A DNA stretch of 64,000 bases from Escherichia coli O127:H6 str. E2348/69 (GCF_000026545.1 NC_011601.1); one strand, 5' to 3'. Shown: positions 3,708-27,196, counted from the stretch's first letter. Made by a program: numbers and translations. Notes: generated from the letters alone by a model not told the origin.

Positions 3708-3864
3708 AAATTTGAAAAGTGCTGCAAAGCACAGACCACCCAATCGCAGTATTTCGAATTGCGACAAGGCGGCAACTGAACGAATCCTTGGGAGCTTACA
3801 AAAGTAAGTGACTAAGGTGAGTGAAGGCAGCCAAGGCAGTAGCGGTTCGAAAGACGAAGATTAA

Positions 3865-3940
<76 letters not shown>

Positions 3941-3975
3941 AAATTTGAAAGTGCTGTAAAGCACAGACCACCCAA

Positions 3976-4051
<76 letters not shown>

Positions 4052-4059
4052 AATTCTTC

Positions 4060-4320
4060 TCTCAATAAAATATCCACAGCGACGCGATGCGTTATTGCTG
4101 GTTTTTGTTGTCTCTGACAAACTCTTGTAAACAGAGTTATCCACAGCCTCAGGCCGTAATCTTAATTTCAAAGAAACTTCGCACGGTGAATAGTATTTTT
4201 TTAACCTATTGATAGATAAGTTAAAAATTAAGATTTCGTTTTGTCGTATCGATCACTTGACGATTTTTTCCGGCTTGAATTGCAATGCGTTTTTATTTTT
4301 ATTCACAAGCTGTGGATGAA
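4060..4320. promoter_or_regulatory. datA: datA-like DnaA-box cluster (DnaA titration locus) between glyVXY and queG
   Basis: DnaA-box matches to TTATNCACA: ATATCCACA 4070-4078 (8/9), TTATCCACA 4137-4145 (9/9), TTATTCACA 4299-4307 (9/9) and inverted TGTGGATGA 4311-4319 (8/9), with an A/T-rich stretch between; position matches recalled location of datA. Confidence 0.6.
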
Positions 4321-20570: not shown

Positions 20571-21302
20571 ATGAGCGAAATGATTTACGGCATCCATGCA
20601 GTGCAGGCCCTGCTGGAGCGCGCCCCTGAACGTTTTCAGGAAGTCTTTATTTTAAAAGGCCGTGAAGATAAACGTCTGTTACCGCTGATTCACGCCCTTG
20701 AGTCTCAGGGCGTGGTTATCCAGTTGGCAAACCGCCAATATCTCGACGAGAAAAGCGACGGTGCCGTGCATCAGGGCATTATCGCTCGTGTGAAGCCAGG
20801 ACGGCAGTATCAGGAAAACGATCTGCCGGATCTGATCGCTTCGCTCGATCAACCGTTCCTGCTGATCCTCGATGGCGTAACCGATCCGCACAACCTCGGC
20901 GCGTGCCTGCGTAGCGCGGACGCCGCTGGTGTTCATGCGGTGATTGTGCCGAAAGATCGCTCCGCACAGCTCAACGCCACGGCGAAAAAAGTGGCCTGTG
21001 GTGCGGCAGAAAGCGTTCCGCTGATTCGGGTGACTAATCTGGCGCGCACCATGCGTATGTTGCAGGAAGAGAATATCTGGATCGTCGGTACGGCAGGCGA
21101 GGCGGATCATACACTCTATCAGAGCAAAATGACCGGACGCCTGGCGCTGGTGATGGGTGCGGAAGGTGAAGGTATGCGTCGCCTGACCCGTGAACATTGC
21201 GATGAGTTGATCAGCATCCCAATGGCAGGAAGTGTTTCTTCCCTGAACGTTTCGGTTGCAACCGGAATTTGCTTATTTGAAGCGGTTCGTCAGCGCAGCT
21301 AG
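20571..21302 (+). CDS. rlmB: 23S rRNA (guanosine-2'-O)-methyltransferase RlmB
   Basis: 243-aa SpoU/TrmH-family ORF. Confidence 0.93.
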
Positions 21303-21321
21303 TTCCTCTGAATTATGAAAA

Positions 21322-21350
21322 GCCATCCAGATTTGGATGGTTTTTTTTTG
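21322..21350 (+). terminator. Intrinsic terminator downstream of rlmB
   Basis: CCATCC-agattt-GGATGG hairpin followed by nine T. Confidence 0.7.
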
Positions 21351-21428
21351 TCTATAGCTGGTAAGATAATTACGTACTGCAAATATTCATTTTATTAATA
21401 TTTAAACTTAATCTATATGGAATAATAT

Positions 21429-21830
21429 ATGACATGGAATCCGTTGGCGCTGGCGACGGCGCTGCAAACTGTACCTGAAAAAAATATTGATGTAACAAAT
21501 AGCGAAAGCGCATTAATTATTAAAATGAATGATTATGGCGATTTGCAAATCAATATTCTTTTTACTTCCCGCCAAATGATCATCGAAACCTTTATTTGTC
21601 CGGTAAGTAGTATCAGCAATCCAGATGAATTTAATACCTTCTTATTAAGAAATCAGAAGATGATGCCGTTGTCATCGGTAGGGATCTCCAGCGTGCAACA
21701 GGAAGAGTATTACATTGTTTTCGGTGCGTTATCGCTTAAATCTTCTCTTGAAGATATCCTGCTTGAGATAACCTCGCTGGTAGATAACGCATTGGATCTG
21801 GCTGAAATTACAGAAGAATATTCACACTAA
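21429..21830 (+). CDS. yjfI: Uncharacterized protein YjfI
   Basis: 133-aa ORF; conserved position, first gene of the yjfIJKLMC cluster. Confidence 0.8.
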   Translation: MTWNPLALATALQTVPEKNIDVTNSESALIIKMNDYGDLQINILFTSRQMIIETFICPVSSISNPDEFNTFLLRNQKMMPLSSVGISSVQQEEYYIVFGALSLKSSLEDILLEITSLVDNALDLAEITEEYSH

Positions 21831-21848
21831 TTACAAGGACGGGTATTT

Positions 21849-22547
21849 ATGGGGATTTTAAAAAGTTTATTTACGCTGGGGAAATCGTTTATCTCCCAAG
21901 CGGAAGAGTCTATTGAAGAAACCCAGGGCGTGCGCATGCTGGAACAGCATATTCGTGACGCAAAAACTGAACTCGATAAAGCCGGAAAATCTCGCGTTGA
22001 TCTGCTGGCGCGGGTGAAATTAAGTCACGATAAGCTGAAAGATTTACGTGAGCGCAAAGCCAGTCTGGAAGCGCGTGCGCTGGAAGCGTTAAGCAAGAAC
22101 GTGAATCCGTCGTTGATTAACGAAGTTGCTGAAGAAATCGCGCGCCTTGAGAATCTCATTACCGCTGAAGAGCAAGTGTTGTCGAATCTGGAAGTCTCTC
22201 GTGATGGCGTGGAAAAAGCAGTTACAGCGACAGCGCAGCGTATCGCTCAGTTTGAGCAGCAAATGGAAGTCGTTAAAGCCACTGAAGCCATGCAGCGTGC
22301 ACAACAGGCTGTAACGACCTCTACTGTTGGCGCATCTTCCAGCGTTTCGACAGCGGCAGAATCCTTAAAACGCCTGCAAACGCGTCAGGCCGAACGTCAG
22401 GCTCGCCTGGATGCTGCCGCACAGTTGGAAAAAGTCGCAGACGGTCGCGATCTCGATGAAAAGCTGGCGGAAGCCGGAATTGGCGGTAGCAATAAAAGTA
22501 GCGCCCAGGATGTATTAGCAAGACTGCAACGCCAACAGGGCGAGTAA
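21849..22547 (+). CDS. yjfJ: PspA/IM30-family protein YjfJ
   Basis: 232-aa coiled-coil ORF with PspA-like heptad pattern. Confidence 0.85.
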   Translation: MGILKSLFTLGKSFISQAEESIEETQGVRMLEQHIRDAKTELDKAGKSRVDLLARVKLSHDKLKDLRERKASLEARALEALSKNVNPSLINEVAEEIARLENLITAEEQVLSNLEVSRDGVEKAVTATAQRIAQFEQQMEVVKATEAMQRAQQAVTTSTVGASSSVSTAAESLKRLQTRQAERQARLDAAAQLEKVADGRDLDEKLAEAGIGGSNKSSAQDVLARLQRQQGE

Positions 22548-22597
22548 TTTTTTTGCCAGCCTCACTGCAAGGCTGGCAACTATTTTAAGGATAAAAT

Positions 22598-23257
22598 ATG
22601 TCTGGTTTTTTCCAGCGTCTGTTTGGCAAGGATAATAAGCCTGCTATCGCTCGCGGTCCGCTGGGTCTGCATCTCAATAGTGGCTTTACGCTCGACACGT
22701 TAGCGTTTCGTTTGCTGGAAGATGCATTGCTGATCGAGCTACCGGGTGAAGAATATACCGTGGCCGCCGTCAGTTGCATCGATCTGGGCGGGGGTAGCCA
22801 GATTTTCCGTTACTACACTTCGGGCGATGAGTTCCTGCAAATCAATACCACCGGCGGCGAAGATATTGATGACATTGATGATATCAAGCTCTTTGTCTAT
22901 GAAGAGAGCTACGGTATCAGTAAAGAGAGTCACTGGCGCGAGGCGATCAACGCCAAAGCGATGGGGGCAATGACCTTAAACTGGCAGGAAAAACGCTGGC
23001 AGCGATTTTTTAACAGCGAAGAACCGGGAAATATCGAACCCGTCTACATGCTGGAAAAAGTAGAAAATCAAAACCATGCCAAATGGGAAGTGCATAATTT
23101 TACCATGGGCTATCAACGGCAAGTGACCGAAGATACTTACGAATATCTGCTGTTAAATGGTGAGGAATCTTTTAATGATCTCGGCGAGCCGGAGTGGTTA
23201 TTTTCGCGCGCGCTGGGGGTCGATATCCCGCTGACATCACTTCATATTATTGGTTAA
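22598..23257 (+). CDS. yjfK: Uncharacterized protein YjfK (DUF2491)
   Basis: 219-aa ORF, conserved neighbour of yjfJ. Confidence 0.8.
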   Translation: MSGFFQRLFGKDNKPAIARGPLGLHLNSGFTLDTLAFRLLEDALLIELPGEEYTVAAVSCIDLGGGSQIFRYYTSGDEFLQINTTGGEDIDDIDDIKLFVYEESYGISKESHWREAINAKAMGAMTLNWQEKRWQRFFNSEEPGNIEPVYMLEKVENQNHAKWEVHNFTMGYQRQVTEDTYEYLLLNGEESFNDLGEPEWLFSRALGVDIPLTSLHIIG

Positions 23258-23274
23258 TTACAAGGACGTTTACG

Positions 23275-23673
23275 ATGCATATACTGGATTCACTTCTTGC
23301 CTTTAGCGCTTATTTTTTTATTGGCGTGGCGATGGTGATTATTTTCCTGTTTATCTACTCCAAAATTACACCGCACAACGAATGGCAGTTAATCAAAAAC
23401 AATAACACCGCGGCGGCACTGGCGTTCAGCGGAACATTGTTGGGGTACGTGATCCCCTTATCCAGTGCGGCAATCAATGCGGTGAGTATTCCAGACTATT
23501 TCGCATGGGGCGGGATTGCTCTGGTGATTCAATTACTCGTTTTTGCTGGCGTCAGGCTTTATATGCCCGCATTAAGCGAAAAAATTATTAATCACAATAC
23601 CGCAGCAGGAATGTTTATGGGAACCGCCGCGCTGGCTGGCGGTATTTTTAACGCAGCTTGTATGACATGGTAA
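23275..23673 (+). CDS. yjfL: Inner-membrane protein YjfL (DUF350)
   Basis: ORF 23194..23673; start taken at MHILDSLLAFSAYFFIGVAMV (23275); four predicted TM segments. Confidence 0.8.
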   Translation: MHILDSLLAFSAYFFIGVAMVIIFLFIYSKITPHNEWQLIKNNNTAAALAFSGTLLGYVIPLSSAAINAVSIPDYFAWGGIALVIQLLVFAGVRLYMPALSEKIINHNTAAGMFMGTAALAGGIFNAACMTW

Positions 23674-23682
23674 TGGACGATC

Positions 23683-24321
23683 ATGGCCAGAAAACGCAAA
23701 TCCAGAAATAACAAAAATATCGGACATGGGGCAATCAGTCGCATTGGTAGACCGCATAATCCTTTTGAGCCGCGCCGCAATCGCTACGCACAAAAATACT
23801 TAACGTTGGCACTAATGGGCGGTGCCGCTTTTTTCGTATTGAAAGGTTGTGGCGATAGTGGCGATGTCGATAACGACGGCGACGGAACGTTTTACGCGAC
23901 TGTGCAGGATTGTATTGATGACGGTAATAATGCAGACATTTGCGCGCGTGGCTGGAACAACGCCAAAGCGGCGTTTTATGCCGATGTTCCGAAGAATATG
24001 ACTCAGCAGAATTGTCAGTCTAAGTACGAAAATTGCTACTACGACAATGTTGAACAGAGTTGGATCCCGGTCGTTTCTGGATTTTTGTTAAGCCGGGTTA
24101 TTCGTAAAGATCGCGATGAGCCGTTCGTCTATAACAGCGGCGGATCCTCATTTGCTTCCCGCCCCGTCTGGCGCAACACTTCCGGTGATTACTCCTGGCG
24201 CTCCGGTTCTGGCAAAAAAGAGTCTTACTCTTCGGGCGGCTTTACCACCAAAAAAGCGTCAACCGTTTCTCGCGGCGGCTATGGTCGTTCTTCCAGCGCC
24301 CGTGGGCATTGGGGAGGCTAA
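23683..24321 (+). CDS. yjfM: Uncharacterized protein YjfM (DUF1190)
   Basis: 212-aa ORF with N-terminal TM segment. Confidence 0.8.
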   Translation: MARKRKSRNNKNIGHGAISRIGRPHNPFEPRRNRYAQKYLTLALMGGAAFFVLKGCGDSGDVDNDGDGTFYATVQDCIDDGNNADICARGWNNAKAAFYADVPKNMTQQNCQSKYENCYYDNVEQSWIPVVSGFLLSRVIRKDRDEPFVYNSGGSSFASRPVWRNTSGDYSWRSGSGKKESYSSGGFTTKKASTVSRGGYGRSSSARGHWGG

Positions 24322-24323
24322 TC

Positions 24324-25487
24324 ATGCTGAGACACAACGTTCCTGTGCGGCGGGATCTGGACCGGATTGCCGCCGATAACGGATTTGACTTTCATATCAT
24401 CGACAATGAAATCTATTGGGATGAGAGTCGGGCTTATCGCTTTACTTTGCGCCAGATTGAAGAGCAGATCGAAAAACCGACTGCGGAACTGCATCAGATG
24501 TGCCTTGAGGTGGTGGATCGCGCGGTTAAAGACGAAGAGATCCTGACGCAACTGGCGATCCCGCCGTTGTACTGGGATGTGATCGCCGAAAGCTGGCGCG
24601 CACGCGATCCTTCGTTGTATGGCCGTATGGATTTTGCCTGGTGTGGTAATGCACCGGTTAAGTTGCTGGAGTACAACGCCGATACGCCAACTTCATTGTA
24701 CGAGTCGGCTTATTTCCAGTGGTTGTGGCTGGAAGACGCCCGGCGTGGCGGCATTATTCCGCGTGATGCCGATCAGTACAATGCCATTCAGGAACGCCTG
24801 ATTTCGCGCTTTAGTGAGCTTTACAGTCGGGAACCGTTTTATTTTTGCTGCTGTCAGGACACCGATGAAGACAGGAGTACCGTGCTGTACTTGCAGGACT
24901 GCGCCCAGCAGGCAGGGCAGGAGTCGCGGTTTATCTACATTGAAGATCTCGGTTTGGGCGTCGGCGGCGTACTGACCGATCTTGATGATAATGTCATCCA
25001 GCGTGCATTTAAGCTGTATCCGCTAGAGTGGATGATGCGTGACGATAACGGTCCGCTGCTGCGCAAGCGTCGCGAGCAATGGGTGGAGCCGTTATGGAAA
25101 AGTATCTTGAGTAATAAAGGGCTAATGCCGCTGCTTTGGCGCTTCTTCCCTGGTCATCCTAACCTTCTTGCATCCTGGTTCGATGGTGAAAAACCGCAGA
25201 TTGCCGCTGGCGAAAGCTATGTGCGTAAACCGATTTACTCGCGCGAAGGCGGAAACGTCACCATTTTCGACGGTCAGAATAACGTCGTTGACCACGCTGA
25301 TGGTGATTACGCCGATGAACCGATGATCTACCAGGCGTTTCAACCTCTGCCGCGATTTGGCGATAGCTACACACTCATCGGTAGCTGGATTGTCGATGAT
25401 GAAGCGTGCGGAATGGGGATCCGTGAAGATAACACGCTGATCACCAAAGACACCTCACGTTTCGTTCCGCATTACATTGCTGGATAA
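24324..25487 (+). CDS. yjfC: Glutathionylspermidine-synthase-like ATP-grasp protein YjfC
   Basis: ORF 24309..25487; start at MLRHNVPVRRDLDRIAADNGFDF (24324); GSP_synth-like. Confidence 0.85.
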   Translation: MLRHNVPVRRDLDRIAADNGFDFHIIDNEIYWDESRAYRFTLRQIEEQIEKPTAELHQMCLEVVDRAVKDEEILTQLAIPPLYWDVIAESWRARDPSLYGRMDFAWCGNAPVKLLEYNADTPTSLYESAYFQWLWLEDARRGGIIPRDADQYNAIQERLISRFSELYSREPFYFCCCQDTDEDRSTVLYLQDCAQQAGQESRFIYIEDLGLGVGGVLTDLDDNVIQRAFKLYPLEWMMRDDNGPLLRKRREQWVEPLWKSILSNKGLMPLLWRFFPGHPNLLASWFDGEKPQIAAGESYVRKPIYSREGGNVTIFDGQNNVVDHADGDYADEPMIYQAFQPLPRFGDSYTLIGSWIVDDEACGMGIREDNTLITKDTSRFVPHYIAG

Positions 25488-25570
25488 GAATGTTTTAGCA
25501 ATCTCTTTCTGTCATGAATCCATGGCAGTGACCATACTAATGGTGACTGCCATTGATGGAGGGAGAAACA

Positions 25571-27196
25571 GTGCACTGGCAAACTCACACCGTTTTTAAT
25601 CAACCTATACCATTAAATAACAGCAACTTATACCTGTCTGATGGCGCGCTCTGCGAAGCGGTAACGCGTGAAGGTGCTGGCTGGGATAGCGATTTTCTAG
25701 CCAGTATTGGTCAGCAGTTAGGGACGGCTGAATCCCTTGAACTGGGGCGGCTGGCGAATGTGAATCCGCCTGAATTATTGCGCTACGATGCGCAGGGGCG
25801 GCGTCTGGACGATGTGCGTTTTCACCCCGCCTGGCACCTGCTGATGCAGGCGCTATGTACCAATCGGGTGCACAATCTTGCCTGGGAAGAAGACGCTCGC
25901 TCCGGCGCATTTGTGGCGCGCGCGGCGCGTTTTATGTTGCACGCACAGGTTGAGGCAGGGTCGTTATGTCCGATAACGATGACCTTTGCCGCCACGCCAT
26001 TGCTGTTACAGATGTTACCCGCGCCGTTTCAGGACTGGACCACGCCGCTGTTGAGCGATCGCTACGATTCTCACTTATTGCCAGGTGGGCAAAAACGCGG
26101 TTTGTTGATTGGCATGGGAATGACGGAAAAGCAGGGCGGTTCCGATGTCATGAGCAACACCACCCGCGCAGAGCGCCTGGAAGATGGCTCTTATCGGCTG
26201 GTGGGGCATAAATGGTTTTTCTCGGTGCCGCAAAGCGATGCGCATCTGGTGCTGGCGCAGACTACGGGCGGTTTGTCCTGCTTTTTTGTGCCGCGCTTTT
26301 TGCCTGACGGGCAACGCAACGCGATTCGCCTCGAGCGGCTGAAAGATAAGCTGGGTAATCGCTCTAACGCCAGTTGCGAAGTGGAGTTTCAGGATGCCAT
26401 TGGCTGGTTGTTAGGGCAGGAAGGGGAAGGAACTCGTCTGATCCTGAAAATGGGAGGGATGACGCGTTTTGATTGCGCCCTGGGTAGCCATGCCATGATG
26501 CGCCGTGCATTTTCGCTGGCGATTTATCATGCACATCAACGCCATGTTTTTGGTAATCCATTGATCCAACAGCCTCTTATGCGTCATGTCTTAAGTCGCA
26601 TGGCACTTCAGCTTGAAGGGCAAACGGCGTTGCTGTTTCGTCTTGCGCGAGCGTGGGACCGGCGTGCCGATGCCAAAGAAGCCCTGTGGGCGCGTTTATT
26701 TACGCCTGCGGCGAAATTTGTGATCTGCAAACGTGGCATTCCGTTTGTGGCCGAAGCGATGGAGGTGCTGGGCGGCATTGGTTATTGCGAGGAGAGCGAG
26801 CTGCCGCGGCTTTACCGGGAGATGCCGGTAAACAGTATTTGGGAAGGTTCCGGCAATATTATGTGCCTGGATGTGCTGCGCGTTCTCAATAAGCAAGCGG
26901 GCGTATACGACTTATTGTCGGAAGCATTTGTGGAAGTGAAAGGGCAGGATCGCTATTTTGATCGCGCGGTTCGTCGTTTACAGCAGCAGCTGCGTAAGCC
27001 AGCTGAAGAATTGGGGCGAGAGATTACTCATCAGCTATTCCTGCTGGGCTGCGGTGCGCAAATGTTGAAATATGCCTCTCCGCCAATGGCGCAGGCGTGG
27101 TGTAAGGTGATGTTAGATACGCGCGGCGGCGTACGGTTGTCAGAGCAGATCCAGAATGATTTATTGCTGCGGGCGACGGGAGGAGTGTGTTTGTAA
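25571..27196 (+). CDS. aidB: Adaptive-response flavoprotein AidB (acyl-CoA dehydrogenase family)
   Basis: ORF 25553..27196; recalled AidB begins (V)HWQTHTVFNQPIPLNNSNLYL at GTG 25571. Confidence 0.92.
   Translation: MHWQTHTVFNQPIPLNNSNLYLSDGALCEAVTREGAGWDSDFLASIGQQLGTAESLELGRLANVNPPELLRYDAQGRRLDDVRFHPAWHLLMQALCTNRVHNLAWEEDARSGAFVARAARFMLHAQVEAGSLCPITMTFAATPLLLQMLPAPFQDWTTPLLSDRYDSHLLPGGQKRGLLIGMGMTEKQGGSDVMSNTTRAERLEDGSYRLVGHKWFFSVPQSDAHLVLAQTTGGLSCFFVPRFLPDGQRNAIRLERLKDKLGNRSNASCEVEFQDAIGWLLGQEGEGTRLILKMGGMTRFDCALGSHAMMRRAFSLAIYHAHQRHVFGNPLIQQPLMRHVLSRMALQLEGQTALLFRLARAWDRRADAKEALWARLFTPAAKFVICKRGIPFVAEAMEVLGGIGYCEESELPRLYREMPVNSIWEGSGNIMCLDVLRVLNKQAGVYDLLSEAFVEVKGQDRYFDRAVRRLQQQLRKPAEELGREITHQLFLLGCGAQMLKYASPPMAQAWCKVMLDTRGGVRLSEQIQNDLLLRATGGVCL

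Follow-up and report, generated by a model that had tools for sequence, protein, structure and literature searches.

The yjfIJKLMC cluster belongs to a described class of PspA operons

PspA/ESCRT-III proteins are the main bacterial membrane-repair machinery, and YjfJ is their least understood member in Escherichia coli. The operon type that contains yjfJ was described by Ravi et al. (2024, mSystems; PMC11237479), with a gene set that comprises the CesT/Tir-like YjfI, the PspA protein YjfJ, a GspS-related ATP-grasp ligase, a DUF350 protein with four transmembrane helices, a DUF1190 lipoprotein, a DUF2491 protein and a K+ channel. These authors found PspA-CesT dyads to be repeatedly and independently coupled to polyamine enzymes and DUF350, and proposed a PspA-based system that monitors polyamines or a polyamine-type modification. 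The six genes analyzed here, yjfI, yjfJ, yjfK, yjfL, yjfM and yjfC, are a member of this "CesT/Tir-PspA dyad plus polyamine ligase" envelope-stress class. They lie in a 64,000-nucleotide stretch of DNA (the window; positions are counted from its first letter), which in this region is 100% identical over 5 kb to the chromosome of enteropathogenic E. coli O127:H6 E2348/69.

Like the group 3 operons of that survey (PMC11237479), the window locus combines a DUF2170-PspA dyad with DUF2491, DUF350, DUF1190 and GSP_synth genes, all co-directional; unlike them, it has no K+ channel with an intracellular ligand-sensing domain, and a 50-nt hairpin spacer stands there instead. The bacABCDEF "biofilm-associated cluster" of Pseudomonas aeruginosa (PA3732-...) resembles yjfIJ in that BacA is a YjfI homologue and BacB a YjfJ-type PspA. 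The bac genes are co-transcribed as an operon, as judged by reverse-transcription PCR, and the other Bac proteins become more abundant when BacA is lost; the downstream bac genes appear to be of a different CesT-PspA context, and the Pseudomonas loci with K-L-M-C genes (L072, L077-L079; single letters are the last letters of the yjf names) are from other species. The classical pspABCDE/pspF system and Bacillus liaIH share with the window a PspA/IM30/ESCRT-III effector with an N-terminal amphipathic helix and small membrane partners. The partners in the window differ, being CesT-like, DUF2491 and DUF350 proteins, a lipoprotein and a ligase, and Pfam searches of the locus neighbours (rnr, rlmB, the six genes and aidB) found no homologue of PspB, PspC, PspF or LiaI.

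The six open reading frames (ORFs) occupy positions 21429-25487, separated from yjfI to yjfC by gaps of 18, 50, 17, 9 and 2 nt, and each product has a strong full-length Pfam match:

21429-21830, + strand: yjfI, 133 amino acids, Pfam DUF2170 (2e-44)
21849-22547, + strand: yjfJ, 232 amino acids, Pfam PspA_IM30 (5e-58)
22598-23257, + strand: yjfK, 219 amino acids, Pfam DUF2491 (5e-70)
23275-23673, + strand: yjfL, 132 amino acids, Pfam DUF350 (4.9e-34); RefSeq start, the longest ORF beginning at 23194
23683-24321, + strand: yjfM, 212 amino acids, Pfam DUF1190 (2e-17)
24324-25487, + strand: yjfC, 387 amino acids, Pfam GSP_synth (5.5e-149); RefSeq ATG, with an upstream TTG at 24309

This agrees with the coordinates given in a first-pass annotation of the sequence, which had listed six co-directional genes with short gaps and had read them as a membrane-stress module (YjfJ with membrane DUFs) linked in function to a peptide/polyamine ligase. 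That reading is supported both by the sequence and by published work (PMC11237479). The six-gene finding is real and its reading correct, but the locus had already been described, and as written it adds nothing to published work; new in this analysis is the nested structure of the cluster across 81 loci. The physiological role remains undefined in the literature, as had also been claimed, and neither of the outcomes named there as contrary, a defined function already assigned or genes that are not co-transcribed, was fully found. The presence of the region is far beyond chance: of the 5,426 complete E. coli genomes, 5,425 contain a match to it, and a single match spans at least 80% of the query in 5,326. 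We think it reasonably probable that the locus joins a PspA-type membrane-protection module (YjfI, YjfJ, YjfK and YjfL) to a YjfM-YjfC dyad for ATP-dependent spermidine amidation, as nested modules. The cluster matters for its near universality in E. coli, its thermotolerance phenotype and its tie, via the paralogous ygiBC pair, to the TolC/Cpx envelope physiology of pathogens.

A signal-anchored-protein/ligase dyad is the core of the cluster

With profiles that started from the six E. coli proteins and were iterated, we annotated 80 loci that carry a YjfC/YgiC-type ligase gene and come from Gamma-, Alpha- and Deltaproteobacteria (81 loci in all). The following architectures were found:

M-C: 36 loci
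L-M-C: 15 loci
I-J-K-L-M-C: 26 loci, in Gamma- and Deltaproteobacteria
Rotated order: 1 locus, Vibrio ruber (L027)
Divergent M/C pair: 1 locus, Pseudovibrio (L037)
L-C by profile search: 2 loci (L065, L075)

A DUF1190 gene lies directly upstream of the ligase gene, in the same direction, in 77 of the 81 loci. At the two alphaproteobacterial L-C loci (L065:9215-9973 and L075:~3860-4235), the ligase is preceded by small signal-anchor proteins with a Ser/Gly-rich stretch, the motif SRGGFG and a C-terminal GGG; in L065 two of these minimal ORFs stand in tandem. With either a DUF1190 protein or a minimal GGG protein at every ligase, all 81 loci therefore pair the enzyme with a signal-anchored protein of this kind. 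The reverse test gave the same association, as all three informative divergent metagenomic DUF1190 genes have a ligase gene 10-25 nt downstream, a fourth contig ending too early. The DUF350 gene yjfL is present in 45 loci and in all 45 is directly upstream of the DUF1190 gene. The co-occurrence analysis that the first-pass annotation had proposed, once run on these loci, thus found the ligase always with a signal-anchored protein, but yjfI, yjfJ and yjfK, which occur as a block, in only 27-28 of them.

The six-gene cluster is a nested composite of a universal signal-anchored-protein/ligase dyad, a membrane protein and a PspA block. What had been called a conserved six-gene cluster does keep its order in 26 loci, but yjfI-J-K is an add-on to the yjfM-yjfC core in about a third of the loci. 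The core is yjfM, for an exported signal-anchored protein with a ...SRGG[FY]G...[WFM]GG-COOH tail, translationally coupled to yjfC, for a cytoplasmic ATP-grasp ligase. The first extension is yjfL, for a DUF350 four-helix membrane protein, immediately upstream of yjfM; the second is yjfI and yjfJ, followed by a K+ channel gene (lost here) and then yjfK. The ligases of the marine six-gene clusters (L006-L057) resemble E. coli YgiC (57-61% identity) more than they do YjfC (~50%), and those nearest to YjfC outside Escherichia (62-77% identity) belong to Mangrovibacter, Siccibacter and Providencia (L003, L005, L063), which have only L-M-C. The history of the two E. coli pairs appears from these comparisons not to be the simple one implied by their names.

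A K+ channel gene occupies the J-K gap in ~10 of the 27 six-gene loci; in eight it encodes an orthologue of ~350 amino acids. Altogether 18 loci have a wide J-K gap (0.7-1.8 kb). Set beside the E. coli genomes, the other 25 six-gene loci include ~9 with the channel gene and ~17 with a wide gap. The channel proteins combine an Ion_trans_2 domain with the selectivity-filter signature T[VL]G[YF]GD. The gene is kept in several marine loci and in 19 of the 5,426 complete E. coli genomes, where it is annotated as "potassium channel family protein"; at L002:3070-4140 it encodes ~356 amino acids with a TLGFGD filter. Its E. coli junctions are tight, with the start overlapping the yjfJ stop (TAATG) and the stop overlapping the yjfK start (ATATGA). 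The window, like most E. coli genomes, has a 50-nt spacer with a hairpin at this site:

22548-22597, + strand: J-K spacer, 50 nt, at the site of the channel gene elsewhere
22553-22579, + strand: GC-rich 10-bp hairpin, folding free energy -17.1 kcal/mol, z -3.0, with a weak T tract, CTATTTTAAG

The channel gene is ancestral between yjfJ and yjfK and was lost from the window strain, and the hairpin left there may be a weak attenuator. One metagenomic contig has a small Ion_trans_2 channel gene directly after the ligase (L085:1771-2160; order DUF1190, ligase, channel), which is a second, independent K+ channel link to the dyad.

YjfC is an acid-amine ligase with a paralogue beside tolC

YjfC matches the Pfam family GSP_synth with 496.8 bits and is identical in sequence to PDB 7UK6/7UK7, "putative acid-amine ligase YjfC". 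It is an ATP-grasp acid-amine ligase of the GSP_synth family without an amidase domain, aligning to the synthetase domain of GspS alone (residues 40-382 to 253-613). Like GspS (glutathionylspermidine synthetase) and trypanothione synthetase, it has an ATP-grasp synthetase domain (E 5e-33 to 2e-37), and it shares their chemistry, in which a carboxylate is activated and amidated with spermidine; unlike YjfC, with its 387 amino acids, GspS is bifunctional, has an N-terminal amidase domain and is 619 amino acids long. YjfC scored 162.5 bits against the NCBIfam GspS equivalog, below the cut-off of 882. According to papers that cite the biochemical work, YjfC and YgiC act in vitro as peptide-spermidine ligases (Pederick 2023, via PMC11762307) and show no glutathionylspermidine synthetase activity (Sui 2012, via PMC11762307 and PMC12506659). 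The YjfC substrate screen that had been suggested for this locus has with the published in-vitro activity been done at least in part.

The second E. coli pair, ygiB-ygiC, adjoins tolC, and YgiC, solved as 7UK8/7UKA, is 50% identical to YjfC. Like yjfM-yjfC, tolC-ygiB-ygiC has a DUF1190 lipoprotein gene and a GSP_synth ligase gene in the same order and with tight spacing, and the lipoprotein ends in Gly-Gly (...SRSMGG). It differs from the window cluster in having no PspA, DUF2170, DUF2491 or DUF350 genes, in its linkage to tolC and in a tail that ends in MGG rather than WGG. As reported in citing papers, ygiB is Cpx-induced, and loss of ygiBC and yjfMC worsens the growth defect of tolC mutants, in which the two pairs are partly redundant. 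Two ORFs some 8 kb beyond E. coli ygiBC on its downstream side (L048:10421-12714) are, by their N-terminal sequences, candidates for yqiJ and yqiK (flotillin/band-7). In the survey of Ravi et al. (PMC11237479), yqiJ/yqiK count as a further type of PspA partner.

The Gly-Gly terminus of YjfM is a candidate ligase substrate

The first-pass annotation had called the DUF350 and DUF1190 products membrane proteins. This is right for YjfL, a DUF350 four-helix inner-membrane protein by its Pfam match, but YjfM is a predicted lipoprotein and not an integral one. Two features of YjfM bear on its role:

23839-23850, + strand: lipobox L53-K54-G55-C56 (...AAFFVLKG-C56)
24262-24318, + strand: conserved cationic tail T194-G212, net charge ~+7, ending ...SRGGYGRSSSARGHWGG-COOH

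A peptide of this tail reads TVSRGGYGRSSSARGHWGG, and one of YgiB, cognate to YgiC, ends ...QRSATGTSSRSMGG. Enterobacterial YjfM orthologues share the invariant ending ...T.SRGG[YF]GRSSSARG.WGG, with W210, G211 and G212 invariant in 13 orthologues. An exhaustive search of 1.84 billion representative proteins gave 155 relatives, and we analyzed the 114 that were near full length. Ninety-one of the 114 end in Gly-Gly, against 6.2 expected when the last 30 residues of each protein are shuffled (2,000 trials, with a maximum of 15). Gly occupies position -2 in 108 of the proteins, and at position -3 there are 58 with Trp and 16 with Phe. The spacing between the SRGGFG motif and the C-terminus ranges from 6 to more than 30 residues, and selection therefore acts on the terminus itself. 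Copies adjacent to a ligase gene end in GG in 70 of 79 cases, and a lipobox-like motif is present in 94 of the 114. The tails of the two E. coli pairs are not alike: YjfC is paired with ...HWGG, YgiC with ...SMGG.

The Gly-Gly terminus of YjfM itself would be the best genomic candidate for the natural carboxylate of YjfC. GspS activates the C-terminal Gly carboxylate of glutathione. Because the Gly-Gly is conserved, because of this GspS chemistry and because peptide-spermidine ligation has been reported, the tail as substrate is the simplest reading. We nevertheless regard it as doubtful that the DUF1190 proteins (YjfM, YgiB) are ribosomally made substrates of the adjacent ligase, with the Gly-Gly carboxylate of a disordered tail being spermidine-amidated, as several observations weigh against it. 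Nearly all DUF1190 members have a lipoprotein or signal-anchor N-terminus, so that the tail is predicted to be periplasmic while the ATP-needing ligase is cytoplasmic, and modification would probably have to precede export or occur during it. Orthologue alignment shows four conserved Cys in YjfM, which fit a periplasmic domain. The strong positive charge of the tail counts in the same direction. A second membrane span of DUF1190 proteins via the conserved W.P...G[FY][LM][LM] stretch was considered and rejected, the 19-residue hydropathy there being 0.61 compared with 1.39 for signal peptides. Finally, AlphaFold2 left the tail undocked in a fusion of YjfC, a (GGGGS)x8 linker and the last 20 residues of YjfM, run with a 25-row alignment of cognate pairs; predicted local distance difference test scores were ~90 for the enzyme and 29-37 for linker and tail. 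This lends docking no support but is not decisive, given the shallow alignment and the absence of ATP and Mg.

Several of these observations favour an alternative to which we give a little less than an even chance, namely that the acyl substrate of YjfC is a small soluble cytoplasmic peptide or metabolite and YjfM is a periplasmic lipoprotein partner, sensing for instance metals or the state of the envelope. Exported N-termini, four Cys that would suit a disulfide-bonded periplasmic domain and an undocked tail are what it would lead one to expect, and the C-terminal [WF]GG could then serve, for example, in recognition by a PDZ protein or protease or in docking to YjfL. The in-vitro activity cited in PMC11762307 was on free peptides, and in ~10-20% of family members the protein does not end in GG although the ligase is still adjacent. 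Left unexplained are the constant adjacency of the ligase to a DUF1190-type protein and the minimal versions that retain just the anchor, SRGGFG and a terminal GGG. The conserved terminus is moreover a Gly carboxylate, of the kind that GspS uses, and each E. coli ligase has a distinct tail beside it.

Two further lines were followed and set aside. The apparent DUF1190-ligase fusions of E. coli (P0115-P0119, P0163, P0166) are not natural fusions: yjfM frameshifts into the yjfC frame, and the tail is destroyed. Frameshifted yjfM alleles, found also in P0052 and P0055, break at several different points (~24150-24330) and yield called "fusions" of 474-601 amino acids; the yjfM of the window is intact. 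These alleles could be real pseudogenisation or homopolymer sequencing errors. Ligase positions that co-vary with tails not ending in GG were limited to D192L, Y232H and P233A in Pseudomonas and D183E in Halomonas, two lineages in which the changes are inseparable from phylogeny.

Modification of the YjfM tail would have parallels in a single step. The ATP-grasp ligases RimK, which acts on ribosomal protein S6, and tubulin tyrosine ligase modify protein C-termini. Their likeness to the proposed reaction is confined to that step, an ATP-dependent ligase acting on the terminal carboxylate of a disordered tail; ubiquitin-like proteins and Pup, with C-terminal Gly-Gly conjugation tags, are likewise analogous to the tail step only. 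The system here would differ from the RimK and ubiquitin-like analogies in its polyamine nucleophile and its exported lipoprotein substrate, and the homology considered is that of the ATP-grasp fold. We know of no precedent for polyamine ligation onto the C-terminus of an exported lipoprotein. In the searchable literature, which did not cover Pederick et al. 2023, we found no statement that DUF1190 tails are spermidinylated. If the tail were the substrate, the envelope would contain a polyamine-tipped lipoprotein, bacteria would have a protein C-terminal polyamination system, and the missing physiological substrate of both E. coli "peptide-spermidine ligases" would be named. As the ligase is always found with a signal-anchored protein ending in Gly-Gly, the question of the in-cell substrate of YjfC and YgiC becomes cheaply testable.

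The PspA block and its proposed working

YjfI is homologous to P. aeruginosa BacA (PDB 8Q8O, E 4.8e-17), which is a soluble dimer resembling a type-III-secretion chaperone (PMC10948618). With the CesT/Tir-like assignment and fold of YjfI and BacA taken from published work (PMC11237479, PMC10948618), YjfI is a candidate cytoplasmic CesT/Tir-like chaperone or regulator. No signal peptide or other export signal is visible in its sequence; together with the soluble-dimer homologue, this contradicts the label "periplasmic lipoprotein" that it was given in PMC12492005. At 38.6%, the G+C content of yjfI is below that of the other five genes (45-52%) and of the window (51.4%).

YjfJ aligns over residues 2-232 to the whole PspA_IM30 profile (positions 1-220 of 220) with 196.7 bits (cut-off 33.9). 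Its residues 2-19 form a predicted amphipathic helix with a hydrophobic moment of 0.45 and a mean hydrophobicity of 0.26, the moment being reached by 49 of 5,000 sequence-level shuffles. YjfJ had no match at E <= 0.01 among PDB sequences, solved PspA and Vipp1 included, which marks it as a divergent PspA/IM30 member; the sole structural support for its assembly is a homology model (PMC12492005). YjfK is beta-rich, without a signal peptide, and has a conserved polar pocket and a fold with no solved relative. In a comparison of the six proteins with the PADLOC defence models, YjfJ gave only weak coiled-coil noise (E ~1e-3, JetC and LmuB) and the other five gave nothing; with no model matched, an anti-phage defence role was rejected.

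In the composite that we favour, YjfJ would attach to the inner membrane from the cytoplasmic side under heat or envelope stress, using its N-terminal amphipathic helix, and would stabilise or repair the membrane as other PspA/ESCRT-III proteins do. YjfI, as a CesT-like dimer, might hold or regulate YjfJ, and YjfL, together with YjfK and its conserved polar pocket, might connect this membrane step to the ligase step. With ATP, YjfC would then convert a C-terminal carboxylate to an acyl-phosphate and join spermidine to it as an amide.

Expression of the cluster and the coupling of its two parts

Heat-evolved E. coli K-12 strongly upregulates yjfIJKL (PMC12492005), and plasmid induction of this module gives 1.21-fold faster growth at 42 °C. 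From the upregulation and from structure predictions, Rychel et al. 2025 (PMC12492005) proposed that YjfJ, YjfK and YjfL add membrane pores or porins, YjfK being an outer-membrane beta-barrel and YjfI a periplasmic lipoprotein, and that the effect is higher membrane viscosity or export of misfolded proteins at high temperature. The faster growth on induction fits this proposal, and we find both the pores and the suggested effect highly improbable. Neither YjfK nor YjfI has a signal peptide, YjfK has no significant resemblance to any solved porin, and the YjfI homologue BacA is soluble. PspA-family proteins are, moreover, peripheral membrane-remodelling polymers and not channels. The authors of the proposal were themselves unable to place YjfK in a membrane (PMC12492005).

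The supplement of PMC12492005 records the inducing mutation, (T)9->8, under "rlmB/yjfI intergenic (+47/-80)". The cluster follows rnr and rlmB and precedes aidB, and the upstream region contains:

21317-21349, + strand: rlmB intrinsic terminator from a terminator scan, hairpin 21317-21346 and T9 run 21341-21349
21350-21428, + strand: A/T-rich spacer, presumed yjfI promoter and 5' untranslated region, 79 nt, 78.5% A+T

Counting +47 from the rlmB stop (21302) or -80 from the yjfI ATG (21429) leads in either case to 21349, which places the mutation in the T9 run, that is, in the U-tract of the rlmB terminator (RNA folding free energy -16.9 kcal/mol, z -4.4). Its authors called it a promoter mutation (PMC12492005); read-through of the terminator from rnr-rlmB would be an alternative to the promoter reading. 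The terminator and A/T-rich promoter region described upstream of yjfI in the first-pass annotation were recovered in so far as the rlmB terminator and the A+T content of the spacer are concerned, but a consensus scan of 21350-21428 called no sigma-70 site. By eye, a -10-like hexamer, GATAAT, at 21365-21370 is a candidate only.

Since one upstream mutation induces yjfI through yjfL, the J-K hairpin must be read through. A single transcript is favoured by this induction, by the short gaps, by the conserved synteny, with overlapping stop and start codons at the junctions examined, and by internal promoter matches that are not above chance (3 found against 6.4 expected). A terminator-like hairpin in the 3' end of yjfL (23623-23643) was discarded, since shuffled sequences fold just as well (z -0.46).

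Not all of the evidence supports a coupling of the PspA part to the ligase part. The K-12 expression module is yjfIJKL only, with yjfM and yjfC outside it (PMC12492005), which also speaks against one transcript for all six genes. Fifty-three of the 81 loci have the ligase core, as M-C or L-M-C, but lack I, J and K; close relatives of the E. coli genes are among them, such as the L-M-C loci of Mangrovibacter, Siccibacter and Providencia, and the ygiBC pair works beside tolC with no PspA gene nearby. YjfJ itself is reported not to form large PspA-type rings or complexes (PMC5333519), and its functional link to the ligase part is putative. The expression module, the loci without I, J and K and the ygiBC pair would be expected if the locus were two unrelated neighbours, a PspA-type membrane or heat module, yjfIJK(L), and a separately regulated polyamine-peptide pair, yjf(L)MC, uncoupled from it. 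We consider such a split unlikely. The order I-J-(channel)-K-L-M-C is kept in the 26 Gamma- and Deltaproteobacterial loci, with one more rotated, and the junction overlaps, the window gaps of only 2-50 nt and the scarcity of internal promoter matches speak against it, as does the repeated, independent coupling of PspA-CesT dyads to polyamine enzymes and DUF350 (PMC11237479).

Other features of the region

A sigma-54 promoter, the type proposed for P. aeruginosa bacA, was considered for the spacer upstream of yjfI and set aside, as the sequence TGGTAAGATAATTAC at 21359-21373 has, by eye, an A in place of the critical -12 G. An Rfam scan of 21200-25700 returned one match, FuFi-1, whose 19 bits fall below the gathering score of 59.6. 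The interval from the yjfC stop to the aidB start contains, at 25522-25553, a near-perfect 12-bp inverted repeat without a T tract (GGCAGTGACCAT ... ATGGTGACTGCC), which could be an operator or a terminator stem.

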